Below, in pieces: positions 43,501 through 60,338 of a stretch of 64,000 bases of DNA; the first letter of the stretch is position 1; each line of letters opens with the position of its first letter. The notes under the pieces were generated by a model. That model ran no database searches, was not told where the DNA came from, and was given only the letters and a program-made list of their open reading frames with translations. The stretch spans positions 92,548-156,547 of the forward strand of contig CAWGQB010000027.1 in assembly GCA_963824565.1 (NCBI GenBank). The letters are read 5' to 3'. The position numbers were made by a program, and so were the translations under genes. The DNA is from an uncultured Pseudomonadota bacterium (GTDB taxonomy: Bacteria; Desulfobacterota; Binatia; Binatales; Binataceae).

Positions 43501-44180
43501 ACCATTTTCGCACCATGACGGTCATTGCCTTTCCCGCCCCAGGCGTGTTGCCCTCTGAAGTTATGAAATCGGCGCGCCCAAAGATCGAGGCGTTGCGCAG
43601 CGAACTTCCTCCGAGCTACCGCATCGTGTTCGGCGGCGAGCAGGCGAAGCAGGATGAAGGCTTTGGGGAACTGGCGATCGTGCTTGCCATCTCGGCCGCG
43701 GCGATCTTTCTCGCACTCGTCATACAGTTCAACAATCTCATCAAACCGTGGCTGGTATTCTCCGCCGTGCCCTATGGGGCGGTCGGAGCGCTGGCCGCTC
43801 TGTGGCTGACCGGCACGCCCTTCGGTTTCATGGCGTTTCTCGGGATTGCCAGCCTCATTGGGGTAATCGTAAGTCACGTCATCGTGCTGTTCGAGTTTAT
43901 CGAAGAACGCCAGCAACTCGGCGGCGAACTTATCGACGGCTTGCTCGACGCGGGGATCGAACGGCTTCGTCCGGTGATGGTGACGGTTGGCGCAACACTT
44001 CTCGCGCTGTTTCCGCTCGCGCTGCATGGCGGGCCGTTATGGCGGCCGCTGTGCTTCGCACAAATCGGCGGACTCAGCCTCGCAACTATCATCGAGTTGG
44101 TGTTGGTGAAGTCATTCTATGCCATCTTTGTGGCGGACCTGGGTATCCTGAAATGGGGACCCACGGAAAACCCGCGATGA
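40529..44180 (+). pseudogene. RND permease (about 1216 codons, longer than typical AcrB), one frame break near 43205-43210
   Basis: ORFs 40529..43264 and 43068..44180 join as ...LRIRTDWMEQ(S/K) / APSVQLPINADRANFAGVSNADIA... The LLVDDPVVAGDAI motif is present. No outer-membrane factor gene is adjacent. Confidence 0.85.
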
Positions 44181-44201
44181 GTATCGTCGAGGTTGGAAAG
44201 A

Positions 44202-46043: not shown

Positions 46044-46114
46044 GATTGCGCCGAACGCCGTCGAGTCACACTATAAACAAAGGCGGCAATCCCCTCGCAA
46101 GATATAATAGGCAA

Positions 46115-47113
46115 ATGCAGAGTTCAGCTTCGGATAGTCATGATCTAAGCATCATGACCCATAATGTATATTTCGGCGCCGATCTTGAGCCAGTGTACGC
46201 TGCCAGGTCTCCGTCTGAATTGATCGAAGCGAGCCAGCATGTATGGACAGAGGTTCAGGCGAGCAATATCCCTGACCGGGCGGCACGGCTCGCGCACGAG
46301 ATCGCCATGGCCAAGCCCGATCTGGTCGGCCTACAGGAAATAGCTCAATGGTCTACGGGAAGGTTCGGTGCAATGTCCGTCAGATATGATTTCCTGGAAT
46401 CTATTCTTCGATCGCTGCGGGACGAGGGGTCCTTTTATGTGCCGATCGCGATCAAAGCGGACTCGACTCATGCCGAGCCAATGGATTCAGCCGGAAATCT
46501 GCTTCAGTTCACTGATCGCCACGCAGTTCTGCTGAGAATCGACCCCGATTTGGCGCGCGTCCAACCCTACAACGCCCAGGCTGAAACATTTTCGAGGCTC
46601 ATTCAAGTCTCGACCCCCGTGGCCGGATCGATAAGTGTCATGCGCAGTTGGATTGCGGTGGATGCGATTATCGGCGACAGCAAATTTCGCTTGATCGAAA
46701 CCCACGTCGAGTCGCTGGATGAAACGGTGCAGCTAGCGCAGGCACGGGAATTGGCTGCCGGACCCGCCAATACTACCCTGCCGGTGATCATGGTGGGAGA
46801 TTTCAACTCGAACGCGAACCGACAGCCTAGCGTTCGGGACTACACATCGGCCTACCCCGAACTGATTGCCGCAGGTTTCCACGACGTTTGGGCAATCGCG
46901 AATCCAGATCATCCCGGCAACACCTGCTGCCATGCGCGCGACCTGCTGAATTCCACCTCGGAACTGAACCGTAGGATAGATTTGTTGCTTATACGTGGCT
47001 CAATCATGCCAATCTCAGCGGCGTTGGTGGGAGACAATCCTGCCTTTCGTCTGAGCTCGGGGCGGTGGGCATCAGACCATGTCGGGGTGGTCGCGAAGCT
47101 GTGGATCCAGTGA
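46115..47113 (+). CDS. endonuclease/exonuclease/phosphatase (EEP) family protein
   Basis: ORF track 45917.., trimmed to ATG 46115. Motifs are MTHNVYFG, GLQEIA (catalytic Glu), VGDFNS and a C-terminal SDHVGV. TATAAT at 46103-08 lies 6 nt upstream of the ATG, so the mRNA may be leaderless. Confidence 0.8.
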   Translation: MQSSASDSHDLSIMTHNVYFGADLEPVYAARSPSELIEASQHVWTEVQASNIPDRAARLAHEIAMAKPDLVGLQEIAQWSTGRFGAMSVRYDFLESILRSLRDEGSFYVPIAIKADSTHAEPMDSAGNLLQFTDRHAVLLRIDPDLARVQPYNAQAETFSRLIQVSTPVAGSISVMRSWIAVDAIIGDSKFRLIETHVESLDETVQLAQARELAAGPANTTLPVIMVGDFNSNANRQPSVRDYTSAYPELIAAGFHDVWAIANPDHPGNTCCHARDLLNSTSELNRRIDLLLIRGSIMPISAALVGDNPAFRLSSGRWASDHVGVVAKLWIQ

Positions 47114-47342: not shown

Positions 47343-50300
47343 TTAGAGTCCGATCTGTTGTCCAACCAGGTGCGAATATAAACCGCCCATCTTAAGCAGA
47401 GACGCGTGAGTCCCCGCCTCCACCAGTGCGCCGCGGTCGATGACGAAAATTCGGTCCGCATTTTGCACCGTTGATAAGCGATGAGCAATGATAATGGTGC
47501 TGCGGCCGCGGCATGCTCCCTCCAGGTTCGCTTGGATCGCGCGTTCGGATTCAGTGTCAAGTGCGCTCGTCGCTTCGTCCAGAATCAGCAGGCTCGGATC
47601 GCGAAACAGCGCACGGGCGAGAGCAACTCGCTGACGCTGCCCGCCCGACAGGCTCATTCCACGCTCTCCCACCTTGGTGTCGTAACCCAGCGCCATGTCG
47701 TTCACAAAATCACTAACACCCGCGACTTGGGCCGCCGCGACTATCCGCTCGAACGGAGTGTCAGGATCGCCAAAGGCGATGTTCTCGCGGATTGTTCCGC
47801 TGAACAAAAAGACATCTTGCGGTACAACGCCGATCCTTCGGCGCAGATCGCGCCGTGAGAGCGTCCGGATGTCGTGCCCGTCAATAAATACTCTACCTTC
47901 CGATGGCAGGTACAGACCTACGATCAGTTTAGCCAACGTCGACTTTCCGGACCCGGACCGGCCCACGACGGCAATCTTTTCACCCGGGTTGATCTCGAAG
48001 GATACGTCGGCGAGCGTTGGCCGGTCCTGCCCCGGGGTATAACGAAACGAAACGCTTTCGAACCTGATGCTCCCTTCAACCCGAGGCAATGAGACAAGTG
48101 AACGGGATGGGCTTTCTTCCGGCGTCGCGTCAAAAATGTCGTTGAGCCGTTGAACCGCGTTTCTTACATCCTGCAGACTAGCCCATGAGTCGCTGAGCCG
48201 CAGCACCGGCTGAATCAGGTTCCCGGCAAGCGCGGTGAAAGCGATTAGCTCACCGACGGACATTTGGTTTTCCAGAACCTGGCGGGCTCCGTACCAAAGC
48301 ATCAGGACGGACGCCAAGGTTGAGAGGAAGCTCGCGCTGATCGAATACGCGGTCTCCAGGTGAGCTTCACGACGGCCAAGGATCGCGGAATCCACGAAAA
48401 GGTTCTCCCATTTCCACCGGACCGAGGTCTCGACAGCCATGGTTTTGATGGTCGCGATTCCGGTGATTGACTCGATTAGGTAGGACCATTGCTCCGCATT
48501 CTTTGCAAACCACTCCTTGCGGTTTTTCCGCACCGCCGGGGTAAAACCCAGCGTCAAGGAAACGAAAAACGGGATGAAAATCACAATTAGCAGTGTTAAT
48601 CGCAAATTGTAGTAGGCAAGGAAGCTCAGATAGCCCAGCGCCAGAAAGATGTCCAACACCAGTCCCGGAAGCGTTCCGACCATCGCCTCGCGAATCTTCT
48701 CATTCTCACCAACCCGGGAGACCACGTCGCCAACCCGGCGAAGGTCAAAAAAACGCATGGGCAGGCTCATCACATGGCGAAAGAAATCGGCTAGCAACCC
48801 AACATCGGCATGCGTAGCGATGTGGATCAAAAGCAAACGGCGAACGGCGGCGGTGGCGGTCTGCAGCACCACTACCAGGAGCATCCCGGCCAGCAAGGTA
48901 TCGAGCAGGTCCGCGGCATGCAGACCAACCACGCGATCAATTATTACCTGGGTGAACAGCGGCAACGCCAGGCCGAAAAGGTTAAGCAGAAGAGAAGCCA
49001 CCATCACTTCGGCCAGTATTGTCCGGAAGGGGATTAGCACCGCGCTGAATCGCGCATAGGAACCGCGAATTGGCCGATTGCTCCTGAGACGAATGGTGGG
49101 AATTAATTCGAGCGCGCGGCCGCTCCAACCTTTACGAAATTCGTCGGCTGGGAGCTTGCGGATGCCAATGCCCGGGTCACCGACAACTACATACTTTTTC
49201 TCGGCCTCGTAGAGAACGATATAATGGAAGCCTTCCCAGTGCACGATGGCGGGCGTGTTGATGTGCATGAGGGCGTCATAGGAGAGACGAAGACCTCGCG
49301 AGCGCAAACCGATCGCTTCCGCGGCCTGAGCCACGGACCACATGGATGCGCCGTCCTGGTCCGTGTTTGCCAGATCGCGCAATCGCGCGACACCTGCAGG
49401 TACACCGTAGTACGCCGTGATCATTGCCAGACACGCCGCGCCGCAATCGGTCTCGTCGTGTTGTGCCACGAACGGATAGGCCCTGAAGAATCGCCGCCAG
49501 TAAGGATTCGGGGAGGATAGGCGAACCTCGGCTTCATCCCCGGATGGGCGATCGTCCGAAGGAAACTGGATAGTATTCGGAGGAGACGGTTCCGGACGTG
49601 CGCCATGGAGGGTATAAGATGCCGCCACTTGTTCCAGACGGCGGCGGAACTCGGCAGATGCGTCGACAATTTTAGAGAAAGCCTCACGGGACAGGGAGTA
49701 CAGCTCAACGCCTGTCCGGGCGACAACGGTGGCAGTGCGTCGCCCATCGTTCAAGAGCGCCAGTTCGCCAAAGAATTCGCCGGGTCCGATAGAGTTCAGC
49801 AATCGCTCCGTGCCATCCTCGAGCTTGAAAACATCGAGCGTTCCCTGGCGCACAACATAGAATCGGTCTCCAGGATCGCCTTCGTGGAAAATGATCGTTC
49901 CGGCGGTGACCGATTGTTCTGCCAACTGCTCTAGTATTTCTCGCAGCAGCGGCGCCGGAACCGCGCCAAGCGCCGTGAAGCGCTTTAGAAAGTCGCGAAT
50001 CGTAAATTCCTTGAGATACCGTTCCAAAGCGATTCGCGCCTCGGGGTGATCAGCGACGAAGTCGTTGAAGTCCTTACGATCAAGCCGCAGCAGCACGAGA
50101 TCTTCCGCGGCTCGAACGGTCGAGCTGCGCGGCACGTCCAGGATCAGCGCAACTTCCCCGAAGTGATCGCCACGCTTTAATACGGCCAGCGAAACTTCCC
50201 GATTCGCGGAGTCCTTTCCAACTACGCGCGCCCGCCCCGAAGCCACCACAAAGAACGCATCTCCATCTTCTCCTTGTTCGAATACGGTATCGCCGGTCCG

Positions 50301-50408
50301 GAAAAAACACTCGATCATCCGGGCGGCCAGCCGCTCGTGCTCGCTTCGACCGAGCAGCGCAAACAGCCCTGCGGACTCCAGGATCAAGCACCGCTGATCA
50401 GTGTCCAT
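47343..50408 (-). CDS. ABC exporter with two N-terminal cNMP-binding domains + C39 peptidase + TMD + NBD
   Basis: CNB1 is FGEVALILDVPRSSTVRA and CNB2 is FGELALLNDGRRTATVVA. The C39 domain has the catalytic Cys in HDETDCGAACLAMI and His in VHWEGFHYIVLYE. NBD motifs are GRSGSGKSTL, LSGGQRQRVALARAL and LILDEATSALD. SD GGAGGA precedes ATG 50408. Confidence 0.9.
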   Translation of the reverse strand: MDTDQRCLILESAGLFALLGRSEHERLAARMIECFFRTGDTVFEQGEDGDAFFVVASGRARVVGKDSANREVSLAVLKRGDHFGEVALILDVPRSSTVRAAEDLVLLRLDRKDFNDFVADHPEARIALERYLKEFTIRDFLKRFTALGAVPAPLLREILEQLAEQSVTAGTIIFHEGDPGDRFYVVRQGTLDVFKLEDGTERLLNSIGPGEFFGELALLNDGRRTATVVARTGVELYSLSREAFSKIVDASAEFRRRLEQVAASYTLHGARPEPSPPNTIQFPSDDRPSGDEAEVRLSSPNPYWRRFFRAYPFVAQHDETDCGAACLAMITAYYGVPAGVARLRDLANTDQDGASMWSVAQAAEAIGLRSRGLRLSYDALMHINTPAIVHWEGFHYIVLYEAEKKYVVVGDPGIGIRKLPADEFRKGWSGRALELIPTIRLRSNRPIRGSYARFSAVLIPFRTILAEVMVASLLLNLFGLALPLFTQVIIDRVVGLHAADLLDTLLAGMLLVVVLQTATAAVRRLLLIHIATHADVGLLADFFRHVMSLPMRFFDLRRVGDVVSRVGENEKIREAMVGTLPGLVLDIFLALGYLSFLAYYNLRLTLLIVIFIPFFVSLTLGFTPAVRKNRKEWFAKNAEQWSYLIESITGIATIKTMAVETSVRWKWENLFVDSAILGRREAHLETAYSISASFLSTLASVLMLWYGARQVLENQMSVGELIAFTALAGNLIQPVLRLSDSWASLQDVRNAVQRLNDIFDATPEESPSRSLVSLPRVEGSIRFESVSFRYTPGQDRPTLADVSFEINPGEKIAVVGRSGSGKSTLAKLIVGLYLPSEGRVFIDGHDIRTLSRRDLRRRIGVVPQDVFLFSGTIRENIAFGDPDTPFERIVAAAQVAGVSDFVNDMALGYDTKVGERGMSLSGGQRQRVALARALFRDPSLLILDEATSALDTESERAIQANLEGACRGRSTIIIAHRLSTVQNADRIFVIDRGALVEAGTHASLLKMGGLYSHLVGQQIGL

Positions 50409-50529: not shown

Positions 50530-51264
50530 TTGAGCAGCGAAACAGACAGTTCGGCGCGGGTGGAATGGTTAAAGGCGGGGGGCACTGTGGTCACCGGCGC
50601 GGCAGTCCTGGTTGAGCTGAAGCTCGGGGCGAGCGCCCAACTGTTGGAGGATCTGACGCTTCGACGAGTTGCCAAAGCGATGGCCGAGCGGCGCAGCATT
50701 GTGCACTCCGAAGAGGAGTTAGACCAGGCGCTGGCCGCCTTTTACATGGAGCGTAATCTGCTTGACCACCAGCAAATTTCCGATTGGCGTCGATCGCTGC
50801 GCCTGGAGGAAGCAACGCTGCGCGAATACGTGGGTGAGACGGTACTGTTCAGGCGCTTGCGAGAGAGTCTGATCTCCGATCAGTCGGTGGAGAACCGTTT
50901 CAGGATGAACCCGCACGAGTATGCACGGGCAGAGGTTGCTATCTTCACTTTTTCGAGCGAAGGGGCAGGCAAGGAATTCGTTTTGGCGGTCCGTGAGAAG
51001 GAGATCGAGCCGATCCATGGCGCTCGGCAGTGGATGATTCGGCGGGAGACGCCGGACGAGGCGGCGGCGCTGATCTTCTCTGCGCAACCGGGAGACATCG
51101 TGGGACCCGCCGAGACGAATTACCAATGTTACGAGGTGTACCGGCTACTGCGCCGTGAAAGCGGAGTCCTGGATGCACGATTGAAGAAGCAGCTTCGCAA
51201 CGAACTGTTCGATGAACTCCTCAAGGCGGAACTCTCGCGCGACCCGATCAAGTTCCTCTTATAG
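50530..51264 (+). CDS. SurA-N/PpiC (parvulin)-like accessory protein; start uncertain
   Basis: 244-aa ORF. The layout resembles the PPIase-like proteins I recall next to HlyD/C39-ABC peptide exporters (helical N-terminal part ...EELDQALAAFYMERNL...SDWRRSLRLEEATLREYV..., then a degenerate parvulin-like part ...QPGDIVGPAETNYQCYEVYRL..). Confidence 0.45.
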   Translation: MSSETDSSARVEWLKAGGTVVTGAAVLVELKLGASAQLLEDLTLRRVAKAMAERRSIVHSEEELDQALAAFYMERNLLDHQQISDWRRSLRLEEATLREYVGETVLFRRLRESLISDQSVENRFRMNPHEYARAEVAIFTFSSEGAGKEFVLAVREKEIEPIHGARQWMIRRETPDEAAALIFSAQPGDIVGPAETNYQCYEVYRLLRRESGVLDARLKKQLRNELFDELLKAELSRDPIKFLL

Positions 51265-51318: not shown

Positions 51319-52485
51319 TCATTCCGAGAATCGGAAATTGCGCCGCAGGCGCAGGAAAGGGTCGAGCATCACACTGATAACAGTGCGCCGATCAACCTCT
51401 ATTTCAGCCGTTAGGGCAAGACCCGTGCGCACGGCTTCGGTACCGTGAGAGTCGTCCAGCGTCAGGCGGTCGGGCATGATCCACGCGCGATACGCGCCGG
51501 ATTGATCAGCGTCCGGGTCTATTGAAACCAATGTGCCGGGCAGTAGACCGAACCGCTGATACGGATACGCGTCCAACTTCATCCGCGTTCGCAGCCGGGG
51601 CTTCACCCGCCGCATGGATTCGTTGGGGATCCAGACTTCCGCCAGTAACGGCTCGTCGCTGGGATCGATTGTCGCCGCCACATCGTTTGCGGCGAGATAC
51701 CGTCCGGGGCGCAGCGAGCTGACGTAACTTACCGTTCCAGCGATAGGAGCTACCAAGACTGTCCTTTGCTGAACTTGAATATCCCGGCCAAGCTCGATTT
51801 CCAACGCCTCGATCTTTTGGGATGTTCCAATCGCTAGCCCTCGATCCTTTCGGCCTTCGGCGTCTGAATGGTTCAGATCCGATTGAAGCTGAGCGACGTG
51901 CGTTTGAGCCTCCGCAACGGCCGCTTCTCTCTCCTGTAAGTCGAAAAGCGATACTGCTTCAGCCTGGTAGGCTTCGTGCATCGCACGAGCTTGTTGAGCC
52001 GTTAGTTCGAGCAGCTTCTGAGCGCCCACGAGCTCTTGCTTGATATGACCCGAAGCGCTCGCCAGAATATCCGCGCTATCCTTATAAGCGTCGCCCTCGG
52101 CCTTCGTCTCCGCCAGTTCGTGACGAACGCGCGCAACCTCGGCTTCCTCACGAAAGGAATCGATCTCGAGGATCGGCTCGCCTGCGCGCACCTTTGCGCC
52201 TACCTGGACCAGCACCGCGGAAACAACTCCCCCAGCTGGAATAGAAAGACGCTCGGGTTCGGCGCGAGGCACCAACCGACCCTTGGCAGTTACTACGACA
52301 TTTACTCTGGCAATCGACGCCCAGGTGAGACCGGCAAACACGGTAAGGCTAATGAGATAAATCATTCCGCGGGAGAGCAGGATGCTCAATTGCGGTAGGA
52401 CCCGATCTGTTGGCGCGATCTCCACGGTGTCATTCAAACTGTAGTTCGTTGTGGCAGCTGCAATCTCGAAGGCGGCATAGCAAAC
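51319..52485 (-). CDS. HlyD-family (type I secretion / bacteriocin export) membrane fusion protein
   Basis: An N-terminal TM segment (MIYLISLTVFAGLTWASIA), a long coiled coil, and C-terminal lipoyl/beta-barrel blocks. The start is ATG 52485 or 52533. Confidence 0.85.
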   Translation of the reverse strand, partial: VCYAAFEIAAATTNYSLNDTVEIAPTDRVLPQLSILLSRGMIYLISLTVFAGLTWASIARVNVVVTAKGRLVPRAEPERLSIPAGGVVSAVLVQVGAKVRAGEPILEIDSFREEAEVARVRHELAETKAEGDAYKDSADILASASGHIKQELVGAQKLLELTAQQARAMHEAYQAEAVSLFDLQEREAAVAEAQTHVAQLQSDLNHSDAEGRKDRGLAIGTSQKIEALEIELGRDIQVQQRTVLVAPIAGTVSYVSSLRPGRYLAANDVAATIDPSDEPLLAEVWIPNESMRRVKPRLRTRMKLDAYPYQRFGLLPGTLVSIDPDADQSGAYRAWIMPDRLTLDDSHGTEAVRTGLALTAEIEVDRRTVISVMLDPFLRLRRNFRFSE

Positions 52486-52608
52486 CATAGGCTCCCGGAC
52501 GCTGCAGATGCAAACAGCAGACAGCTCACACAAACAGCGAGCTAGATTATCTTCTCATAAAGAAAAGTTTTACAAGCACAATCTTTTTACGACGATAAGT
52601 TTTATTTG

Positions 52609-52638
52609 GTTGCACGATTCTGTCGCGTATGCATAAAT
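52609..52638 (+). promoter_or_regulatory. candidate promoter of the peptide gene (TTGCAC ... extended -10 TGCATAAAT)
   Basis: TTGCAC at 52609-14 and TGCATAAAT at 52630-38. The surrounding stretch is AT-rich. A paralogous version lies at 53105-53133. Confidence 0.4.
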
Positions 52639-52678
52639 TAAGAGAGTCTCGGTCAGTAGAACTAAAAAGGAGGCAGCA

Positions 52679-52840
52679 ATGGACAAGCGTAATGAATCGG
52701 AGAGCGAAGAGCTCAGCAAGAAGGAGATGAAGAACACCAAGGGTGGAGCAGCAATCGCCGTAGCCAAGGAGCCGAAGCTCAAGATAGACGCACCTGCCGA
52801 ATCCTTGGTTGAAGCACCCAAACGGGTGCTCGATCGCTAA
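52679..52840 (+). CDS. 53-aa double-glycine (GG) leader peptide precursor, not in the ORF track (<60 aa)
   Basis: Own translation: MDKRNESESEELSKKEMKNTKGG|AAIAVAKEPKLKIDAPAESLVEAPKRVLDR*. A strong SD (AAAAAGGAGG) lies 6 nt upstream. The leader fits the C39 consensus (L-12, E-8, M-7, T-4, G-2, G-1). It sits next to the HlyD/C39-ABC genes. Confidence 0.75.
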   Translation: MDKRNESESEELSKKEMKNTKGGAAIAVAKEPKLKIDAPAESLVEAPKRVLDR

Positions 52841-52901
52841 AGCCTAACCAGCTCTGCGCCCGTGGCGCGCGCCACCGGCAACTTAAGCGATCAACACTTG
52901 T

Positions 52902-52932
52902 GCAGCTCTGGGTCACTCGGGCTCAGAGCTGC
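52902..52932 (+). terminator. stem-loop after the peptide gene (9-bp perfect stem GCAGCTCTG / CAGAGCTGC)
   Basis: Read directly from the sequence. It is preceded by the GC palindrome GTGGCGCGCGCCAC (52862-75). The U-tract is weak (ctttc). Confidence 0.4.
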
Positions 52933-53087
52933 GCAAGGCTTTCGCGTCATCTTTAGGCACCGGGCCCTGTGACTGTGCCCAGCGGGAAGTGTGCGAGGAA
53001 CGCCCCCAAATAAAGCGCAATTAACTGAGCGTGGTCTCGGGTTTTGTGGCCGCGGCTAGCTGGTCTAGAAACATAATCTGTTTCCAA

Positions 53088-53227
53088 CGCTAAGTTTGAT
53101 TTTATTGCAGAGTGTTATCTGGTATGCGATAAGGAAACGAATTTCGATCGACGCAACTGCCAAAGAGAAAGCCATGGGCAAGCGCAATGAACCGGAGCAC
53201 TCCAGGCGTTACCCGAAGGTCGACTGA
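53088..53227 (+). pseudogene. decayed paralog of the GG-peptide gene (promoter + first 8 codons conserved, then a 17-aa ORF)
   Basis: cgctaagtttgattttattgcagagtgttatctggtatgcgataag aligns with 52594-52640. ATG 53174 encodes MGKRNEPEHSRRYPKVD*, versus MDKRNESESEELSKK... in the intact copy. No GG motif remains in any frame. Confidence 0.45.
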
Positions 53228-53407
53228 ATCCGGTTCTGAGCGATGAATGTCTGCGTAAGGGCAGCGAACTCGGAGATTGATCCTGCGATATCTATGTCAG
53301 CGTCATGAGGTGCAAAATTCCGGCCGCTCTCTGGAAAAAACGGCCCGTAACTTTCTGCATTCAGGAGGTCCCTTGCAAATGTCCCGCAGGCGCGCAGTAG
53401 GCCGGCC

Positions 53408-56400
53408 ATGGCACAATCAGGGACTGTAACACTGCTATTTACCGACCTGGTCAATTCGACCGATCAGTTGCAACAGGCGGGCGACGAAGCCGAGCGGTGG
53501 TTTCGAGTTCATCACAAGCTGATGACCGATGCGGTCACGGCCGGCGGCGGAGAGGAGCTGCAATGGCTGGGCGACGGGATGCTGGCGGCGTTCTCGTCGA
53601 TCGCCGACGCGGTGCGTTGCGCCATCAATGTGCAGCAGACCGCGCGCCGCCCGATGGCCGGCGCGCGTTTCGAGATTCGCATCGGCATTCATTTGGGCGA
53701 GGTCCTGCGCCGCGACGGCGGCTACTTCGGTATGCCGGTGGTCACCGCGCGCCGGCTGTGCGACCGTGCCGAGGCCGGGCAAATCCTGTGCAGCAAACTG
53801 ATCGCGGAGTTGCTGGCGGCGCGCCAGACTTTCAGCTTCCGCGATCTGGGCGAATTTAGCTTGAAAGGCCTCGCGGCGCCGGTGGGGATTTGCGAGGTAG
53901 TTTATCCGGCTAACGACCCCGCCGCGATGCTTAACCGGACCCCGTTCGTGGGCCGTGGCGGGCAACTGCAGCGGCTGTCAGCCAAGCTCGAAGAGGCCTG
54001 CAACGGCCGCGGCTCGATTGCGATGGTGCGCGGTGAACCGGGGATCGGCAAGACCCGGACGCTCGAAGAGTTCGCCGACCAGACCCGCCAACGCGGCGCG
54101 GTGGCGATTCGCGGCGCTTGTTACGACGGCGAATGGCAGGCGCCCTACGGCCCGTTCGCGGAAGCAATCATGGAGTATGCTCGCGATGCCAACCGCGCCG
54201 AGCTTGGCACCCTGCTGGGCAAGCGGGCGCCGATTCTCGCGCGCATCGCGCCGGCGCTGCACGAGTTGCTCGGCGACATCCCCGAACCGGTGCCGCTGGA
54301 CAAGGAAGAAGAACGCTTCCGCCTGTTCGACGCGGTCGCGCAGTTTTTGATCAGCGCCGCGCAGTATGCGCCGCTAGTGCTGATCCTCGACGACCTGCAC
54401 TGGGCGGACCGCGGCACGGTAGCGATGTTAAGCCATGTGGCGCATTTCGTTTCCGCCAATCCGATCGTGCTCATTGGCGCCTATCGCGACGCTGAAGTCG
54501 ACCGCAAGCATCATCTGGCGGGGGCTCTGGCCGGCATCAGCCGGCTGCACAATTTCGACAGCCTGGCGCTCAAAGGGCTCGAAGGTGAGGAGGTCGCGGA
54601 CTTGCTCGGGTTAATCGGCGACGGGCAGCCACCTGACGCCCTGGTCAAGGCGCTGGGGGGCGCCACCGAAGGCAACCCGCTGTTTCTGCGCGAGGTGTTG
54701 CTGCACTTGGTAGAAGAGGGAAAAATCCTGCGCGAAGGCCACGGCTGGATTTCCAAGTTCAGCGTCGACGAACTCGGTATCCCCGAAGGCGTGCGCCAGG
54801 TAGTCAGCCGGCGACTGCTGAGGCTGTCCGATGACGCCAACCGTCTGCTCGGGGTCGCTTCGGCGTTCAACGGCGCATTCTCGTTTGAGGTGGCAGCCTC
54901 GGCGGCGGGACTCCACGAGAACACCGCGCTCAGCGCGATTGACGAAGCCCTGGAGGCTCAGCTTTTACAGCCGGGGCCAAGCCCGGAGAGTTTCGACTTC
55001 ACCCACGCGATGATCCGGCACACACTCTATAATGATCTCCATCCGGCCCGCCGGGTGCGGCTGCATCGCAAGATCGCCGAAGAAATGGAGCGCGCCTGGG
55101 GCGAGCGCGCGGCGCATCACGCCGCGGAAGTGGCGTTTCAGTTCTGGCGCGGCGCCGCGGCGTCCTCGGGCACCGAGCGCGGCGTCGATTACGCACTGGC
55201 CGCGGCCGATAATTCCGAAGCCGCCTACGCGCATGACGAAGTGGCGGCGTTCCTGCGCATCGCCTTGGAGTTGCTCCCGGCCAACGACTCCAGACGCCCG
55301 CGTCTGCTCGCGCGTTTGGGCACCGCACTGATCTGGACGCTTGATGCCGACGACGGGGTCAAGGTCGCGCTCGAAGCGGGATCCATGATTGCCGCCACCG
55401 AGGGAGCCGATCCTGCGGCCGACTTCTTTGAAGCCACCGCGCGCGGAATGCTGCGCGCTGGCCTGATGCGTCACGCATGGGATTTGGCCCGGGAAGGCCT
55501 GCGCAACATCGGCAAGCGCCGTGACATTGTGTGGGCGAGCCTCGACGAGATCGATACGTATCGCGCTGATGCTGAAGATCCCGACAGCCCGGCCATAACT
55601 GTCGATTCCCAACGACTGCGCCAACGGCGCGCGGTACTCAAGCAAATGTCATCCGAGCGGGCCAAAGCCCGGAGAATTGACGAATATCCCTACGACTCAA
55701 GAGAGGAAATCATTCGCGACCCCAACTGCGACAATCTGGCGATGGTTTTTCTCGCCGGCGATTGCCGGCGCAGTCTGCCGTTGTGGCAGCAGCGCTCCGC
55801 CGACGCTGAGCGCTGCGGCCGGATTGCGTTGGCGATGGAGTCCTGGGCATACGTCGCCCGATGTCACAATGCGCTCGGCGATTTCATTGCCGCGCGGGCC
55901 GCGTATGATCGGTCGATCGCATTTGCCGCGCGCTTCAATCGCCCTTCGTTTCAACTCCTTAATCTCATGTCCGTTAGATATGATTTCCTCATAGCCCTTG
56001 ACCACGGCTGGGATGAAACCATCAGCGTTCCCGGAGCAGCGGAGCTGTTCAAAAATCCGCTCCCGGAATTGAAATGGGCCTATGCCGCCGCTTGCGCGAC
56101 CACGGCTCACACTCTGGCGTTACAGAACCGCGCCGATCAGGCGTTACAGGTGCTTAGCATCGTACCCGATGCGCTGCGTCGTGGAGCGCCCTTTGGACTG
56201 GTGTACAGCTTGACCGCCTGTGATGCCGCGTCGGTGCTGTGGCTACTCAATCGCACTGATCATATGGAGGTTATCGAGAGTAGCATCCGGGAGAAGGTTC
56301 TGGCCCCCGATTTCCGTTTTCCGATGCGCGACGGCCGGTTATCGATGGCGCGTCTGTCCGCGCTTGCGGGCCGCTACGATGAGGCGGCGGACTGGTTCGC

Positions 56401-56614
56401 CAAGGCGCGCGAGATCCTCGATGAGCAGGGTTGGCGGCCGCTGCGTGCAATCTGTGACTACGATGAAGCGGTAATGTATATACGGTGCGGCGCGGCAACG
56501 GGCATCTCAAACGCGCAGCCTCTGCTCGACGCGGCTGCGCGCCAATTCCAGTCCCTCGGCATGCCCGGCTGGATCAAGCGCGCCGAGCAAACCTCTGCCG
56601 CCATCCGCAATTAG
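53408..56614 (+). CDS. class III cyclase domain + AAA/STAND P-loop ATPase + TPR-like C-terminal region (1068 aa), paralog 1
   Basis: Cyclase blocks are VTLLFTDLVNST, ELQWLGDGMLAAF, FEIRIGIHLGEV and GGYFGMPVVTARRL. Walker A is GEPGIGKTR and Walker B is LVLILDDLHWAD. The long helical-repeat C-terminus has no LuxR-type HTH recognisable. Confidence 0.9.
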   Translation: MAQSGTVTLLFTDLVNSTDQLQQAGDEAERWFRVHHKLMTDAVTAGGGEELQWLGDGMLAAFSSIADAVRCAINVQQTARRPMAGARFEIRIGIHLGEVLRRDGGYFGMPVVTARRLCDRAEAGQILCSKLIAELLAARQTFSFRDLGEFSLKGLAAPVGICEVVYPANDPAAMLNRTPFVGRGGQLQRLSAKLEEACNGRGSIAMVRGEPGIGKTRTLEEFADQTRQRGAVAIRGACYDGEWQAPYGPFAEAIMEYARDANRAELGTLLGKRAPILARIAPALHELLGDIPEPVPLDKEEERFRLFDAVAQFLISAAQYAPLVLILDDLHWADRGTVAMLSHVAHFVSANPIVLIGAYRDAEVDRKHHLAGALAGISRLHNFDSLALKGLEGEEVADLLGLIGDGQPPDALVKALGGATEGNPLFLREVLLHLVEEGKILREGHGWISKFSVDELGIPEGVRQVVSRRLLRLSDDANRLLGVASAFNGAFSFEVAASAAGLHENTALSAIDEALEAQLLQPGPSPESFDFTHAMIRHTLYNDLHPARRVRLHRKIAEEMERAWGERAAHHAAEVAFQFWRGAAASSGTERGVDYALAAADNSEAAYAHDEVAAFLRIALELLPANDSRRPRLLARLGTALIWTLDADDGVKVALEAGSMIAATEGADPAADFFEATARGMLRAGLMRHAWDLAREGLRNIGKRRDIVWASLDEIDTYRADAEDPDSPAITVDSQRLRQRRAVLKQMSSERAKARRIDEYPYDSREEIIRDPNCDNLAMVFLAGDCRRSLPLWQQRSADAERCGRIALAMESWAYVARCHNALGDFIAARAAYDRSIAFAARFNRPSFQLLNLMSVRYDFLIALDHGWDETISVPGAAELFKNPLPELKWAYAAACATTAHTLALQNRADQALQVLSIVPDALRRGAPFGLVYSLTACDAASVLWLLNRTDHMEVIESSIREKVLAPDFRFPMRDGRLSMARLSALAGRYDEAADWFAKAREILDEQGWRPLRAICDYDEAVMYIRCGAATGISNAQPLLDAAARQFQSLGMPGWIKRAEQTSAAIRN

Positions 56615-56802
56615 CCAAGTCGGACTGCTCCCTTATGCGCGGTATGGCCTTTAGCGAACTGCATGAACGGGGGTACACGCCGCACCCTCGAGTTTTCTAA
56701 GAGACCCTAATGCCCTTTGCGCCGGCCAAACTGAGCTATCCAGAAACATTCAGCGTTCCCTCGGGATGCAAACGAGACCTACACAAACGATCTCTAGTTA
56801 GA

Positions 56803-56979
56803 AACAAGTTGACATAGACTTTTAACGCTTGTAGGTTCAAAATCATGCAGCGGCAGCACTTCGAGACCCCATATGGCAGCTTAAGAACCACACCGGCGTC
56901 TCCGCATTCCGTTCCGATTGGGATGGATCTCGGCGAGTAGCAGTTCGACAGAAATACCACCGTCTCCGAAGCGGAGGTA
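56803..56979 (+). promoter_or_regulatory. conserved promoter (TTGACA-17-TAGGTT) plus conserved leader hairpin; paralog of 38871..39040
   Basis: AAACAAGTTGACATAGACT...GCTTGTAGGTT has its -35 at 56809-14 and -10 at 56832-37. It carries ATATGGCAGC (56871-80) and AGAAATACCACCGTCTCCGAAGCGGAGG. The hairpin is TACCACCG (56955-62) paired with CGGAGGTA (56972-79), with one mismatch. Confidence 0.5.
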
Positions 56980-57137
56980 GAGCTATCTTTTGAAGGTTTC
57001 GATGCGACAATTGCGCAGCCTTGGACACCCCGGGTTGCGGGACCGGCGGGCAAAATCGCCGGCCGGCGCGCAAACGCGCGGCGTCGGAGGCTCGGAGGGC
57101 GCCGTCCTGATCGAGGTGGCGCGGCGGTAGGTCTGCG

Positions 57138-60100
57138 ATGGCGGAATCCGGAACCGTTACGCTGCTGCTCACCGATCTGGTCAATTCGAGCCTACTGTTG
57201 GAGCGCGCCGGCGACGAAGCCGGCCAGCGGTTGTTCCGTGCCCACCACAAGCTGATGACCGATGCGATCACCAGCAACGGCGGAGAGGAATTGCAATGGC
57301 TGGGAGACGGCGTGCTGGCGGCGTTTTCATCAACCGCCGACGCGGTGCGTTGCGCGATCATTATCCAGCAAACCGCACGGCGGCCCGTGGAGGGAGCGCG
57401 GTTCGAGATCCGCATCGGGGTCCATATCGGCGAGGCGTTGCGGCGCGAGGACGGCTACTTCGGCACACCTTTGGTGATGGTGCGCCGGCTGTGCGAGCGC
57501 GCCGCGGCCGGACAGATCCTTTGCAGCAGGCTGATCGCGCAGATATTGGCCTCGCGCCAGTCGTTCACGTTCCGCGCGCTTGATAACGTCGAACTCAAAG
57601 GTTTCGCGGCGCCAATCGCCATCAGCGAAGTCGTCTACCAGCGCAACGATCCGGCAGCACTGCTCAATCGCACTCCGTTCGTGGGCCGCTCAGAGCAACT
57701 CAAACGTCTGTCGGTTAAGCTTGAAGAGGCCTGCAACGGCCACGGGGCGGTTGCGATGCTTCAGGGCGAGCCCGGCATCGGCAAGACCCGCACCCTGGCC
57801 GAGTTTGCCGACATGGCCCGCCAACGCGGAGCGCTGGTGCTGCGCGGCGCTTGCTACGACGGTGAATGGCAACGGCCCTATGGTCCGTTCGCGGAAGCGA
57901 TCGTCGAATACACGCGGCATGCCCAACCCGCGCAACTCGCCGCTGCATTGGGCAAGAGCGCGTCAATTATCGCACGCATCGCGCCGGCGCTCCGCGAACG
58001 GCTGGGCGACATTCCGGAACCCACAGCGTTGGACAAGGACGAGGAGCGCTTCCGGCTGTTGGACGCGGTTTCACAGTTTCTCATCGCCATCGCCCAGCAC
58101 ACGCCCCTGGTATTGGTGCTCGACGATCTGCATTGGGCGGACCGCGGGACGACGGGACTGCTCGGCCACGTGGCGCATAGTGTTCCCGCGAATCCGATGC
58201 TGTTAATCGGCGCCTACCGCGACGCCGAGGTTGACCGGATGCACCCGCTCTCCAGAGCCGTCGTCACGATTCGAAGGCTGCCGAACTTTGAAATCATTTC
58301 GTTGAAGGGTCTCGGAGGCGAAGAGGTAGCTGAGTTGCTCGAGATCGTCGCCGACCACGACGCGCCCCAGGCTCTGGTCCAGACGCTCAGCGCGGAGACC
58401 GAAGGCAACCCGCTATTTATCCGCGAGGTGCTCTTGCACCTGCTGGAAGAGGGAAAGATTCTGCGTGACGGCCAGGGCTGGATATCGAAATTCGACGTAT
58501 CGGAGCTCGGTATCCCAGAGGGAGTACGCAGTGTAATCGGCAGGCGCCTGGAGAAGCTGTCCGCTGAAGCCAATCGCCTGTTGACGGTCGGGGCGTGCTT
58601 TAAAGGTTCGTTCTCTTTCGAAGTGGCTGCCGCTGTTGCCGAACTGGACGAAGACGTTGCACTCAACGCGGTCGACGAGGCACTCGATGTGCAACTGCTG
58701 CGTCCTGGCGCCAATGCTGAGAGCTTCGATTTCAACCATGCGCTCATCCGCCACACGCTTTACTCAGAGCTCAACCCCGCTCGCCGGGTACGGCTGCATC
58801 GCCGCATCGCGGAAGCGATGGAACGTACGTGGGGCGAGAAGGCGTCGGAACACGCTGCCGAAGTGGCCTACCAGTTCTGGCGCGGCGCCACCGCTTCCGG
58901 CACCGAACGCGGTGCGGACTACGCGATCGCGGCCGCGGACTATGCCGAAGCTGCCTATGCGCACGACGAGGTAGTCGCCTTTTTACGCATCGCCTTGGAA
59001 CTCCTGGCGCGAAACGACTCGCGCCGAACCCGGCTGCTCGCCCGCCTGGGGCTGGCCCTCACGTGGACACTTAACGAGGAAGAGGCGGTAAGGGTCGCCC
59101 ACGAAGCGGGTGACTTGATCGCACCTGCCGAGAGCCCTGCCGCAGCGGCAGACTACCTCAGGATCGCGGCGCGCGCGATGTATTCCGCGGGACTGTTGCG
59201 TGGCGCCTGGGAACTGGCCAAGGATGGGCTCCGTCATGCGGGTGACCGCCACGACGTCACCTGGGCCAGCCTTAACGAGATTGATTTGATGCGCCAGGGC
59301 GCCGAGGATCCCGCAAATCCGGGTATCCGTTCCGACACCCCGAACGAACGCGAACATCGTGCCATATTGAGGCAGCTGCCGCCCGAACAATTGCGCGCCG
59401 CCGGTCTGGATCGGCCATTTGATTCCAGGAATGAGATCCTGCAATCCAATGACCCCTCGCCAATTGCATTGTTGTTCCTTGCGGGCGAATACCGGCGCAG
59501 TCTGCCCATTTGGCAACGAGAGGCGGCCGAAGCAGAGCGCGCAGGCCGAATCATGTGGGCGATGCACGCGTGGGCCAGCGTGGCACGCTGCCATATCGCG
59601 CTTGGTGACCTGACTGTCGCGCAGGCAGCATGCGACCGTGCCGCGGTGTTGTCCGGACGTTCGGTCGGGTCATCGCCCTGGCTGCTGAACCTGCTCTCGG
59701 CGAGACACGACCGGCGCGTCATGCTCGATGAGGGATGGGAAGAAGTATTCAGCGATCCCTTAGTCCAAACCCTGATGCAGGAGCAGCGCGCGGAGAACAA
59801 ATGGGCAGCGGCGCCAGTCCATGCTGCATCGGCTTACCTGTTTAGCCGAATCAACCAGCCGGAGATGGCTGTGCAGCGGCTCGAATCGCTGACCGCCGCG
59901 CTCGAATACGGAGCCGGATGGGCCAATGTTTACAGCGGCATGGCCTGTGACGCAGCTGCGACGCTATGGTTTCTCAATCGTACGGACTCGATCGGCGTCA
60001 TTGAACGAAACCTCCGTGAAAAAGTCATTGCTCCCGACTTCCGCTATCCGATGCGCGACGGACGTCTCTCTCTCGCGCGTCTGTGCGCTCTCCAGGGGCG

Positions 60101-60338
60101 TTACGATGAAGCCTCGCAATGGTTCGCCGACGCGCGCGAAGTCCTCCACGAACAGGGGGCTCGCCCATTGCGCGCTATCACTGATTTCGATCAGGCCATC
60201 ATGTATCACCGTCGCGCCGGCCAGGGAGATATCGAACGTGCGGCTCCATTTTTGGAAGCCGCTTGCGAACAGTTCCGTCAGCTCGGCATGACGGGCTGGA
60301 TACGCCGCGCTGAGGCGGCTGCCAAAGCCGGTACGTGA
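57138..60338 (+). CDS. class III cyclase domain + AAA/STAND ATPase + TPR-like region (1066 aa), paralog 2
   Basis: Collinear with paralog 1 (roughly two-thirds identical by eye): VTLLLTDLVNSS, ELQWLGDGVLAAF, GYFGTPLVMVRRL, GEPGIGKTR and LVLVLDDLHWAD. Confidence 0.9.
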   Translation: MAESGTVTLLLTDLVNSSLLLERAGDEAGQRLFRAHHKLMTDAITSNGGEELQWLGDGVLAAFSSTADAVRCAIIIQQTARRPVEGARFEIRIGVHIGEALRREDGYFGTPLVMVRRLCERAAAGQILCSRLIAQILASRQSFTFRALDNVELKGFAAPIAISEVVYQRNDPAALLNRTPFVGRSEQLKRLSVKLEEACNGHGAVAMLQGEPGIGKTRTLAEFADMARQRGALVLRGACYDGEWQRPYGPFAEAIVEYTRHAQPAQLAAALGKSASIIARIAPALRERLGDIPEPTALDKDEERFRLLDAVSQFLIAIAQHTPLVLVLDDLHWADRGTTGLLGHVAHSVPANPMLLIGAYRDAEVDRMHPLSRAVVTIRRLPNFEIISLKGLGGEEVAELLEIVADHDAPQALVQTLSAETEGNPLFIREVLLHLLEEGKILRDGQGWISKFDVSELGIPEGVRSVIGRRLEKLSAEANRLLTVGACFKGSFSFEVAAAVAELDEDVALNAVDEALDVQLLRPGANAESFDFNHALIRHTLYSELNPARRVRLHRRIAEAMERTWGEKASEHAAEVAYQFWRGATASGTERGADYAIAAADYAEAAYAHDEVVAFLRIALELLARNDSRRTRLLARLGLALTWTLNEEEAVRVAHEAGDLIAPAESPAAAADYLRIAARAMYSAGLLRGAWELAKDGLRHAGDRHDVTWASLNEIDLMRQGAEDPANPGIRSDTPNEREHRAILRQLPPEQLRAAGLDRPFDSRNEILQSNDPSPIALLFLAGEYRRSLPIWQREAAEAERAGRIMWAMHAWASVARCHIALGDLTVAQAACDRAAVLSGRSVGSSPWLLNLLSARHDRRVMLDEGWEEVFSDPLVQTLMQEQRAENKWAAAPVHAASAYLFSRINQPEMAVQRLESLTAALEYGAGWANVYSGMACDAAATLWFLNRTDSIGVIERNLREKVIAPDFRYPMRDGRLSLARLCALQGRYDEASQWFADAREVLHEQGARPLRAITDFDQAIMYHRRAGQGDIERAAPFLEAACEQFRQLGMTGWIRRAEAAAKAGT

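Follow-up and report, generated by a model that had tools for sequence, protein, structure and literature searches.

The 64,000-nucleotide stretch of DNA analysed here (the window), from an uncultured soil bacterium of the Binataceae, contains two cyclase-STAND paralogs, P0001 and P0002. We infer, with a probability of about one half, that they are ligand-gated class III cyclases which make cGMP, or a mixture of purine cyclic nucleotides (cNMP), for receptors encoded beside them; activity, product, gating and link to the receptors all belong to this reading. What is truly new about them, judged from sequence, is that the base pocket has switched in a coupled way from Lys/Asp (K/D) to Gln or Glu with Gly (Q/G or E/G), a change which defines a clade. 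The paralogs and the domains of the first one are distributed as follows:

53408..56614, forward strand: cyclase-STAND paralog 1 (P0001, 1068 aa), with class III cyclase, AAA_16 NTPase and TPR sensor (ORF, translation, Pfam)
53414..53902, forward strand: cyclase catalytic domain of paralog 1 (HMMER alignment to Ma1120, AF2 model, Foldseek)
53942..54475, forward strand: AAA_16 (STAND) NTPase module of paralog 1 (Pfam; motifs from the translation)
55328..56611, forward strand: C-terminal all-helical TPR or MalT-domain-III-like sensor region of paralog 1, without HTH (AF2, Foldseek)
57138..60338, forward strand: cyclase-STAND paralog 2 (P0002, 1066 aa), with the same architecture as P0001 (ORF, Pfam)

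P0001 and P0002 show 64% identity over their full length; the figure rises to 73% for the cyclase domain and falls to 51% for the sensor, which is the most diverged region. Both have a Guanylate_cyc match (PF00211) at residues 3-154, of 38.7 bits in P0001 and 29.1 bits in P0002 (cut-off 21.9), and an AAA_16 match at residues 179-356 (E 2.3e-28 in P0001). Two families were considered and rejected: the TIGR03903 TOMM kinase/cyclase fusion (171.5 bits against a cut-off of 705.75, with the kinase domain absent) and the TIGR04510 peptide-modification cyclase (33.5 bits against 400).

Active-site residues were assigned from a HMMER alignment of P0001 with Ma1120 (PDB 4wp9/5d0g; E 5e-23), gap-free around the motifs, using K101, D157, A164 and R168 as the key residues of Ma1120 (PMC4215837). 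An independent profile alignment to the stand-alone cyclase of the window (13287-14129) gave identical columns. P0001 shows D13 and D56 as metal ligands, Q52 at the Lys position, G105 at the Asp position, V112 at the Asn position and the Arg R116; in P0002 the corresponding residues are D13 and D57, Q53, G106, V113 and R117. Their codons are:

53444-53446 (D13), 53561-53563 (Q52) and 53573-53575 (D56), forward strand: P0001
53720-53722 (G105), 53741-53743 (V112) and 53753-53755 (R116), forward strand: P0001
57174-57176 (D13), 57294-57296 (Q53) and 57306-57308 (D57), forward strand: P0002
57453-57455 (G106), 57474-57476 (V113) and 57486-57488 (R117), forward strand: P0002

The preliminary description had reported both metal Asp residues, Gln in place of Lys, a replaced Asn beside a conserved Arg, and neither Asp nor Thr at the second specificity position, and all of these assignments hold in the alignment to Ma1120: the canonical adenine pair Lys/Asp(Thr) is replaced by Q52/G105 and Q53/G106, and from the transition-state pair the Arg is present and the Asn is Val. 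It was also correct that the stand-alone cyclase carries the canonical K, T, N and R, as the profile alignment shows. The residue assignments are likewise confirmed by the modelled fold. An acidic residue lies one or two positions upstream of the pocket Gly (D103 in P0001; E104/D105 in P0002). D103 was considered as a displaced specificity Asp and ruled out, because position 103 is also acidic in K/D relatives. The model of the P0001 cyclase domain (pLDDT 87.7) matches 5d0h with TM 0.86/0.93 in Foldseek; Ma1120 is matched with TM 0.86-0.94 and rmsd 1.6-1.8 A, Rv1900c falls within the same TM range, and the top match is the K/D/A-to-E/G/Y mutant of Ma1120.

Among 122 close relatives, the two metal Asp residues are kept in 109 and 116, the Arg in 111, and both Gly at the Asp position and Val at the Asn position in 114; the Lys position contains Q in 67, E in 42 and K in 10. 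A wider set of 299 non-identical domains shows the pairs K/D (115), Q/G (83), E/G (63), K/G (six) and Q/D (three). The clade with Q/G or E/G is nearly monophyletic and comprises 146 of these 299 domains, a proportion which is biased because the homologs were collected by similarity to P0001. On a tree computed without the trait columns, K/D versus Q/G or E/G requires two changes, and Q versus E at least 21, with Gly constant. Additional columns covary in the 299 domains: 51, 59, 102 (D/E to R), 58, 40 and 60. The altered pocket pattern recurs in more than 140 relatives and is not due to chance. Hydrophobic residues at the Asn position are the rule in the subfamily, whose commonest signature, DKDDVR, accounts for 84 of 175 domain rows.

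The preliminary description had suggested either a non-cAMP product or a regulatory pseudo-cyclase. The second proposal, in which catalysis has been lost and the domain only dimerises or binds nucleotide for the STAND protein, is very improbable. Two of the six canonical residues and the Asn are non-canonical in the paralogs, and some family members are missing the Arg or one of the metal Asp residues (for example the signatures SEDGVR, DQNASQ and DKDGVQ), but both window copies and about 90% of the 122 relatives keep both metal Asp and the Arg, conservation within the protein is highest in the cyclase domain, which is under purifying selection (dN/dS 0.09-0.21), and the cyclase genes are linked to cNMP receptor genes. 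The Asn is also absent from the active cyclases Ma1120 and XC_0250; Ma1120 natively has Ala164 and loses activity with A164N (PMC4215837), so Val at this position is compatible with activity.

A non-cAMP product, by contrast, stands as a prediction from the coupled switch and from two precedents: the specificity pair of the guanylyl cyclase Cya2 is E/G, and Ma1120 K101E/D157G had the highest guanylyl cyclase activity among double mutants (PMC4215837). On sequence grounds, the conserved altered site is most likely active and GTP-accepting. The paralogs could instead be ordinary adenylyl cyclases whose Q/G pocket selects ATP, with the neighbouring CNB proteins as cAMP receptors, a reading we consider rather unlikely. 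That Ma1120 double mutant nevertheless kept a preference for ATP (kcat/Km 1.92 vs 0.29 x10^6) and needed a third change, A167Y, for even-handed use of ATP and GTP (PMC4215837); the window paralogs show Arg where this change puts Tyr (Arg115 in P0001). The nearest solved relatives of the paralogs are all adenylyl cyclases, and the CNB domains of the neighbouring exporter are similar to those of both PKA and PKG. Rv0386, which bears Gln, is reportedly an adenylyl cyclase with guanylyl cyclase side activity, as a secondary source supports in part. Where proven guanylyl cyclases have Glu, the window copies have Gln, which counts against the predicted GTP use. However, the 115 domains of the sister clade retain the ATP-specifying K/D, which is replaced here as a pair together with further pocket columns, a change hard to explain at constant substrate, and the guanylyl-cyclase Glu occurs in 63 of the 146 clade domains (about 43%).

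Downstream of the cyclase domain, the paralogs show the features of a STAND NTPase: an AAA_16 profile match, Walker A (GxxxxGK[ST]) and Walker B (hhhhDD) motifs, and a C-terminal repeat sensor. In the P0001 translation, Walker A (GEPGIGKT, 209-216) and Walker B (LVLILDD, 323-329) are both intact. Pfam gives weak TPR matches at the C-termini of the paralogs; in the AF2 model the last 428 residues of P0001 form a TPR solenoid with helices only (pLDDT 91.9), whose Foldseek matches are TPR proteins and MalT domain III (1hz4, TMq 0.48, the best TM-score). The Pfam search found no GerE or other HTH in P0001 or P0002, and TPR reaches the C-terminal end in the model, as the preliminary description had noted for the HTH. 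Of the oddities listed there, the missing Asn and the missing HTH are ordinary for the family: HTH is absent in 36 of 42 long relatives and GerE is found in only one.

For the paralogs as ligand-gated purine cyclases, a mechanism can be proposed by analogy with the known working of STAND proteins and class III cyclases. A ligand would bind the diverged C-terminal TPR sensor, the AAA_16 NTPase would then probably oligomerise in an NLR-like STAND gating, and the N-terminal cyclase domains would be brought into a head-to-tail dimer, forming the active sites. The catalytic core keeps its two metal Asp and the triphosphate-contacting Arg intact, and the purine pocket is rebuilt: Lys to Gln (Glu in many orthologs), Asp to Gly, and position 102 from acidic to Arg. 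From this rebuilt pocket GTP use is predicted, giving cGMP or cGMP and cAMP rather than cAMP alone.

The genes upstream of the paralogs are:

44193..46043, forward strand: cNMP-binding, NTE-like, patatin phospholipase (Pfam; cassette GEMALL..RRSATV)
45917..47113, forward strand: endonuclease/exonuclease/phosphatase-family protein (Pfam Exo_endo_phos)
47343..50408, reverse strand: HetC-like peptidase ABC exporter with two N-terminal CNB domains, C39, TMD and NBD (Pfam; NCBIfam NHLM_micro_ABC1-like)
50530..51264, forward strand: PpiC-like protein (weak TIGR04500 'peptide maturation system' match, below cut-off; syntenic in five loci)
51319..52533, reverse strand: HlyD-type membrane-fusion protein of the exporter (Pfam HlyD_3, NCBIfam type_I_hlyD; syntenic in five loci)
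52679..52840, forward strand: 53-aa peptide gene with a double-glycine (GG) leader (...EMKNTKGG, then AA...) (ORF)

This island of GG-leader peptide, cNMP-domain C39/ABC exporter, cNMP-patatin and cyclases is conserved. P0001 orthologs (68-73% identity) adjoin the same exporter cassette in other loci, and P0002 has its own orthologs elsewhere (73-76%). In loci L022, L032 and L044 the peptide gene likewise lies between those for HlyD and the cyclase, with a conserved leader and a variable core; the peptide is likely the cargo of the exporter. The Exo_endo_phos gene accompanies cyclase and patatin genes and adjoins cyclase-STAND genes in L016, L018, L024 and L025. A CNB gene is present in 13 of 33 Binataceae loci, the exporter cassette in five and CNB-patatin in eight (seven distinct genes); in several other genomes no more than 300 bp separate the patatin gene from a cyclase-STAND gene, which it directly precedes except in L029, where the two are divergent. 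The genome to which the window belongs (7.0 Mb) shows 19 CNB-domain matches, and three of the four best-scoring are less than 10 kb upstream of the paralogs. Among 61 family genomes, cyclases occur in nine, the exporter in six and a close patatin (at least 58% identity) in seven, and all six exporter genomes and all seven patatin genomes fall among the nine cyclase genomes, counts that are descriptive only because related genomes are not independent.

The Gly-Glu ... Arg cassette for holding the cyclic phosphate is kept in the three CNB domains of the exporter and the patatin, and both exporter cassettes are intact (FGEVAL..PRSSTV and FGELAL..RRTATV); the residues RTA, RSA and RSS do not discriminate between cAMP and cGMP. 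The cyclase product would most likely be read by these adjacent domains, that is, by the HetC-like C39/ABC exporter, which would process the neighbouring GG-leader peptide and export it, and by the cNMP-patatin phospholipase.

Pycsar cyclases have pyrimidine specificity, and the island could also be read as a Pycsar-like abortive-infection system in which the paralogs supply the cNMP-patatin with a cyclic pyrimidine nucleotide or with another unusual one. The short distance between patatin and cyclase genes would fit this, as would weak PycC matches of P0002, the fast divergence of the sensor domains, the likeness of the island CNB domains to those of Pycsar effectors, and the patchy distribution of the cyclases, which are found in 9/61 family genomes and in none of three same-genus genomes, with one to 11 copies where present. 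Nevertheless it is improbable: with the PADLOC PycC models P0001 gives no match and P0002 only weak, partial-domain ones (residues 7-82, E 9e-7), neither phage nor mobile-element genes were seen in the window, purine-cyclase precedents exist for the Q/G or E/G pair, and the peptide-exporter linkage suggests signalling or secretion.

Beyond the two paralogs, it is possible, although we propose it only tentatively, that the cyclase-STAND proteins with Q/G or E/G form a so far unrecognised clade of guanylyl (or dual purine) cyclases with NLR-like ligand gating, within a three-part cGMP module with a cNMP-gated exporter and a cNMP-activated patatin. If so, a sensed cue would lead to release of the GG-leader peptide and to membrane lipolysis, and the physiological ligand class still missing for HetC-type exporters would be cGMP.

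Among known systems, the closest solved relative is Ma1120, a Mycobacterium avium class III adenylyl cyclase (PDB 4wp9, 5d0g/5d0h; 33-35% identity), of the same subfamily without the transition-state Asn (Ala164 versus Val112) and with the Arg and both metal Asp kept. It differs in the ATP pair K101/D157 and in being a stand-alone catalytic domain protein, whereas the window proteins combine a Q/G cyclase domain with a STAND NTPase and a TPR sensor in one chain. Cya2 of Synechocystis (PDB 2w01) has the same fold (Foldseek rank 45, TMq 0.82) and Gly at the second specificity position, and orthologs of the window genes carry its full E-G pair. The window copies do not show the Cya2-type guanylyl cyclase signature of Glu/Gly plus Tyr beside the Arg, with Gln for Glu and Arg for the GTP-boosting Tyr, and Cya2 has no STAND module. 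The M. tuberculosis proteins Rv0386, Rv1358 and Rv2488c (cyclase-ATPase-LuxR) likewise begin with a class III cyclase and continue with an AAA_16-type ATPase; by their description, they differ in their GerE/LuxR HTH, and Rv0386 also in having Asn, not Gly, as second specificity residue. Rv0386 is the one characterised Gln enzyme we know of, and is said to have been described by Castro and colleagues in 2005 with Gln at the Lys position. Pycsar likewise pairs a class III-like cyclase with a CNB-domain effector, and the island CNB domains match Pycsar effector models, but here a convincing PycC match is lacking, the cyclase forms one protein with a STAND sensor and the effector is a large NTE-like patatin.

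XC_0250 of Xanthomonas campestris is a cyclase-TPR protein with cGMP-only activity, whose specificity site holds Ala and whose Asn site holds Leu, linked to the cGMP-binding CNB protein XC_0249 (PMC3770947). As described there, it resembles the paralogs in its N-terminal class III cyclase and TPR, its small or hydrophobic site residues and its linkage to a CNB receptor; it differs in its size (886 aa), in also missing the Arg (A161) and in that no ATPase domain is described for it, and XC_0249 is a CNB-GGDEF receptor, compared with an exporter and a patatin in the window. HetC of Nostoc PCC 7120 is to our knowledge the only studied CNB-exporter. The window exporter shows its same CNB, C39, TMD and NBD architecture; according to the accessible portion of the HetC source, the CNB region is essential, GDP, GTP and ppGpp are ligands in vitro, cAMP and cCMP are not bound, and cGMP is not named among those tried (PMC10986499). 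Exporters of this kind therefore need not bind a cNMP through their CNB domains at all. That portion describes no linked cyclase for HetC, whereas in Binataceae the exporter gene lies beside cyclases and its product contains two CNB domains whose cNMP cassettes are intact.

The two cyclase-STAND genes are open reading frames (ORFs) on the same strand, with a spacer of 523 bp between them:

53408-56614, same strand as P0002: cyclase-STAND gene P0001 (paralog 1), 1068 aa
57138-60338, same strand as P0001: cyclase-STAND gene P0002 (paralog 2), 1066 aa

The encoded proteins are 64% identical over the entire length and show the same Pfam domains: a Guanylate_cyc domain at about residues 3-154, scoring over the gathering cut-off, an AAA_16 domain at about 179-356 (E 1e-28), and weak TPR signals at the C-terminus. 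The translation of P0001 keeps an intact Walker A motif, GEPGIGKT at 209-216, and an intact Walker B motif, LVLILDD at 323-329. Membership of the TOMM kinase/cyclase, LipJ and mod_pep_cyc families is ruled out, since both proteins score far under the NCBIfam cut-offs. A promoter and terminator scan of 52400-57300 gave counts not above those of shuffled sequence. The best solved relative of the cyclase domain is Ma1120, an adenylyl cyclase of class III from Mycobacterium avium (E 5e-23), which aligns without gaps near the motifs. In Ma1120, K101 and D157 bind the substrate, R168 is the conserved transition-state Arg, and A164 takes the place of the usual Asn (PMC4215837). The PDB chains 4wp9 and 5d0g differ at three positions, where K was engineered to E, D to G and A to Y, and this fixes the motif columns:

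Catalytic positions of P0001 and P0002 in the alignment to Ma1120
Metal Asp 1: D13 in P0001, D13 in P0002
Lys position: K101 in Ma1120, Q52 in P0001, Q53 in P0002
Metal Asp 2: D56 in P0001, D57 in P0002
Asp position: D157 in Ma1120, G105 in P0001, G106 in P0002
Asn position: A164 in Ma1120, V112 in P0001, V113 in P0002
Arg: R168 in Ma1120, R116 in P0001, R117 in P0002

The same columns are recovered by profile alignment with the stand-alone cyclase of the window (13287-14129), which has K, T, N and R, and the AlphaFold model of residues 1-175 of P0001 (pLDDT 87.7) superposes best on Ma1120: its K/D/A-to-E/G/Y mutant comes first among the structural matches (TM 0.86/0.93, with an rmsd of 1.6-1.8 A), followed by Rv1900c, and Cya2 is at rank 45. 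The cyclase-STAND observation made in the preliminary description is confirmed: both paralogs keep the two metal Asp residues and the Arg, carry Gln for Lys, have no Asp or Thr at the second specificity position and show the Asn replaced, and the stand-alone cyclase has the canonical set. The idea that D103 (or E104/D105) is a specificity Asp that has shifted was dismissed, since the K/D relatives too have an acidic residue at position 103.

The close relatives (n = 122: the two window proteins and the best 120 matches, with at least 51% identity) show Asp at D13 in 109 and at D56 in 116 proteins, Val at the Asn position in 114, Gly at the Asp position in 114, and the Arg in 111, with Gln in its place in nine; the Lys position is Gln in 67, Glu in 42 and Lys in 10. 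Written as six letters (metal Asp 1, Lys position, metal Asp 2, Asp position, Asn position and Arg), the signature is DQDGVR in 57 of the 122 and DEDGVR in 36. Among the 50 cyclase-bearing ORFs of 33 Binataceae loci, taken with flanks of 10 kb, 17 show DQDGVR, 16 DEDGVR and 17 other signatures. A wider library search, with E values of at most 1e-10, gave 18,051 cluster representatives; the 150 best of them yield 175 domain rows, among which DKDDVR is the most frequent signature (84), with nine DQDGVR and eight DEDGVR. The whole subfamily normally carries a hydrophobic residue at the Asn position, and such a residue is compatible with activity because Ma1120 is active with Ala164 and is damaged by A164N, which lowered its adenylyl cyclase activity and abolished its guanylyl cyclase activity (PMC4215837). 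The distinguishing trait of the window genes is the residue pair at the two base-specifying positions. The pooled 299 non-identical domains contain 115 with K/D, 83 with Q/G and 63 with E/G, and mixed pairs are rare (six K/G, three Q/D); 146 domains with Gln or Glu at the Lys position and Gly at the Asp position are here called the [Q or E]/G clade. Further pocket-region columns switch along with the pair: V to L at column 51, M to L at 59 and D/E to R at 102, with 58, 40 and 60 switching as well. A FastTree tree of the pooled domains, from which the two trait columns had been left out, needs only two changes between K/D and [Q or E]/G and at least 21 between Q and E. The pooled sample was collected by similarity to P0001, so its proportions are biased, while the coupling of K/D versus [Q or E]/G is independent of that bias. 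The clade offers a natural test of the co-evolution of two specificity residues, including free Gln/Glu exchange.

The preliminary description had proposed that these enzymes either make a product other than cAMP or are regulatory pseudo-cyclases, and this interpretation is partly supported. The pseudo-cyclase reading is unlikely for P0001 and P0002, because the cyclase domain is the most conserved part of the protein (the paralogs share 73% identity there, against 51% in the C-terminal region, and identity to orthologs is 74-79%), because it has a dN/dS of 0.09-0.21, values that are rough with dS close to saturation, and because the catalytic residues are intact. Furthermore, each paralog has its own orthologs in other genomes (72-76% identity), so the duplication is old and both copies have been retained. 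In some relatives, often in tandem arrays, a metal Asp or the Arg is gone; copies of this kind (signatures SEDGVR, DQNASQ, DENGVR and DKDGVQ) lie beside intact ones in the arrays of other Binataceae loci (L018, L027, L029 and L016/L017), and such pairs could possibly form asymmetric heterodimers with one active site. Unlike these relatives, the window copies keep the metal Asp pair and the Arg.

With regard to the product, the pair E/G is carried by the guanylyl cyclase Cya2 (PMC4215837, introduction). In Ma1120, K101E/D157G is the double mutant most efficient in cGMP synthesis, with a kcat/Km for GTP of 0.29 versus 0.11 in the wild type; it still favoured ATP (kcat/Km 1.92), and the addition of A167Y made it even-handed (PMC4215837). 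At this third position P0001 shows Arg115, and Arg is likewise found in 138 of the 146 clade members. XC_0250 of Xanthomonas campestris, a cyclase-TPR protein whose specificity site is Ala and in which Leu replaces the Asn and Ala the Arg, produced cGMP and no cAMP, and is linked to a cGMP-binding CNB (cNMP-binding domain) protein (PMC3770947). Among the identically syntenic orthologs, those of L022, L026, L032 and L044 have Glu at the Lys position, and those of L037 and the window have Gln; the free exchange between the two residues suggests that both do the same job. Castro et al. reportedly described in 2005 that Rv0386, with the pair Gln/Asn, is an adenylyl cyclase with guanylyl side activity, and a preprint makes its guanylyl cyclase activity dependent on that pair. 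From these parallels and from the Gln/Glu exchange, all of them indirect evidence, P0001 and P0002 are predicted to accept GTP and to make cGMP or a mixed purine product. An altered product is plausible, and plain cAMP synthesis is still a serious alternative, as the K101E/D157G mutant kept its preference for ATP (PMC4215837). A Pycsar assignment was dropped, since the PycC matches in a PADLOC scan are partial only. Proven bacterial guanylyl cyclases are few; if GTP acceptance is true, a sizeable, expanded, STAND-gated clade with a Cya2-like pocket would make bacterial cGMP signalling considerably wider.

The absence of a C-terminal HTH also stands: no GerE or other HTH is found in P0001 or P0002 by Pfam scan, and a model of the final 428 residues of P0001 (pLDDT 91.9) consists of helices from end to end and matches TPR proteins, with the best TM-score to domain III of MalT (1hz4, TMq 0.48). 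MalT is a classic STAND protein, and domain III is its sensor. This absence is ordinary, since a domain scan of 42 long relatives shows the plain layout of cyclase, AAA_16 and (TPR) in 36; the others have a C-terminal GerE (one), an N-terminal BTAD (four) or a receiver domain (one). The cyclase itself is the output domain of P0001 and P0002; the paralogs have this output in common, differ most in the sensor, and probably respond to different cues. Relatives of about 1250 aa exist among P0084, P0085, P0099, P0101, P0102, P0117 and P0122, with GGDEF listed in P0099, and the E/G-type cyclase of relative P0160 is annotated as a fusion with an S1-C serine protease.

The region next to the cyclase-STAND genes contains the following genes:

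44193-46043, upstream of the cyclase-STAND genes: cNMP-binding, NTE-like patatin
45917-47113, upstream of the cyclase-STAND genes: EEP-family gene
47343-50408, minus strand: ABC exporter containing a peptidase, with two cNMP-binding domains at its N-terminus
50530-51264, upstream of the cyclase-STAND genes: PpiC-like gene
51319-52533, minus strand: HlyD
52679-52840, between HlyD and the cyclase genes: 53-codon ORF with a double-glycine (GG) leader

The Gly-Glu ... Arg phosphate-binding cassette is intact in all three CNB domains (two in the exporter, one in the patatin). Against PDB sequences, PKG and PKA domains score equally with the exporter CNB region, so its ligand preference is not readable, and the EEP-family and PpiC-like genes give marginal matches only (TDP2, SurA), so they are assigned no function. 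In the CNB-B domain of the exporter, the cassette Arg is followed by Thr beside Gln cyclases (window, L037) and by Ser beside Glu cyclases (L022, L026, L032), a correspondence across five exporter-linked loci (n = 5) that may reflect shared ancestry only. Counterparts of the GG peptide lie between HlyD and the cyclase genes in L022 (9507-9749), L032 (9467-9694) and L044 (9453-9632); in these and the window the leader is conserved (..ESE.E.LS..EMK.TKGG) and the core variable, as expected of a putative cargo for the adjoining C39 exporter. At window positions 53055-53227, 495 bp downstream of the intact peptide gene, its upstream region and first codons recur in degenerate form (MGKRNEPE..., ended by a stop after 17 codons); about 145 nt of 5' flank are alike in the two copies, with divergence beyond. 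Elsewhere in the window (6360-9817 and 43068-44180), genes for RND transporters of the AcrB type seem to be split or truncated: one pair of overlapping ORFs spans profile positions 1-120 and 221-1020, and a further ORF spans 690-1020 only. Frameshifts or assembly errors account for this.

Of the 33 Binataceae loci, 13 contain a CNB gene, about a dozen contain two or three cyclase-STAND copies, and five show the exporter, PpiC-like and HlyD cassette beside a cyclase-STAND ortholog (68-73% identity). CNB-patatin is found in eight loci, which represent seven distinct genes (L016 and L039 overlap), and lies less than 300 bp from the cyclase-STAND gene in four: directly upstream on the same strand in L016, L028 and L036, and divergent in L029. 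In a survey of 61 family genomes, close cyclase-STAND copies occur in nine (1-11 per genome) and in none of three other same-genus genomes; P0001 and P0002 are the only ones in the own-genome assembly (7.0 Mb, 84% complete). The G+C of both genes (window 54001-60000) is 62-64% versus 56-59% in the exporter, patatin and other neighbours, which together with the patchy occurrence hints at an accessory origin. The exporter occurs in six genomes and patatin orthologs (at least 58% identity) in seven, in both cases all inside the nine cyclase-STAND genomes, and in four of the five other exporter genomes the exporter is within about 6 kb of the cyclase. A more distant patatin group (48-52% identity) is found in six genomes without cyclases, a count that rests partly on three unpublished genomes (G017, G042 and G044). 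These co-occurrence counts are descriptive, since genomes that are related do not count as independent. The own genome gives 19 CNB matches, and three of the four best-scoring sit in this island; a second cyclase/CNB pairing (G000:C5:34622-36616) shows a 763-aa cyclase-domain ORF about 1.3 kb from a 481-aa cNMP-binding-domain ORF.

From known STAND behaviour, the TPR sensor would bind a ligand and license NTP-dependent oligomerisation, which, as in STAND proteins and dimeric class III cyclases, would pair the cyclase domains and turn synthesis on; the product would bind the exporter CNB domains, so that the exporter would cleave and export the GG peptide, and would also bind the patatin CNB domain. 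The observed basis is a catalytic core and NTPase motifs that are intact, a remodelled base pocket, a fast-diverging TPR sensor and conserved linkage with two CNB proteins. Proteins of the cyclase-STAND-TPR type are already known, as are deviations at the six catalytic positions. No description was found of the coherent [Q or E]/G clade, one member of which clusters with a Myxococcota protein, of its Binataceae expansion, or of its tie to CNB-exporter and CNB-patatin genes, in a search of largely open-access literature. Among exporters of the CNB-containing type, HetC of Nostoc alone has been studied, and it needs its CNB region; in vitro it bound GDP, GTP and ppGpp and neither cAMP nor cCMP, with cGMP absent from the tested ligands listed (PMC10986499). 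The conserved linkage to a HetC-like exporter offers a concrete ligand hypothesis for this essential, unexplained domain. The cNMP-patatin linkage resembles second-messenger defence logic, except that here the cyclase itself includes a sensor of the NLR type.
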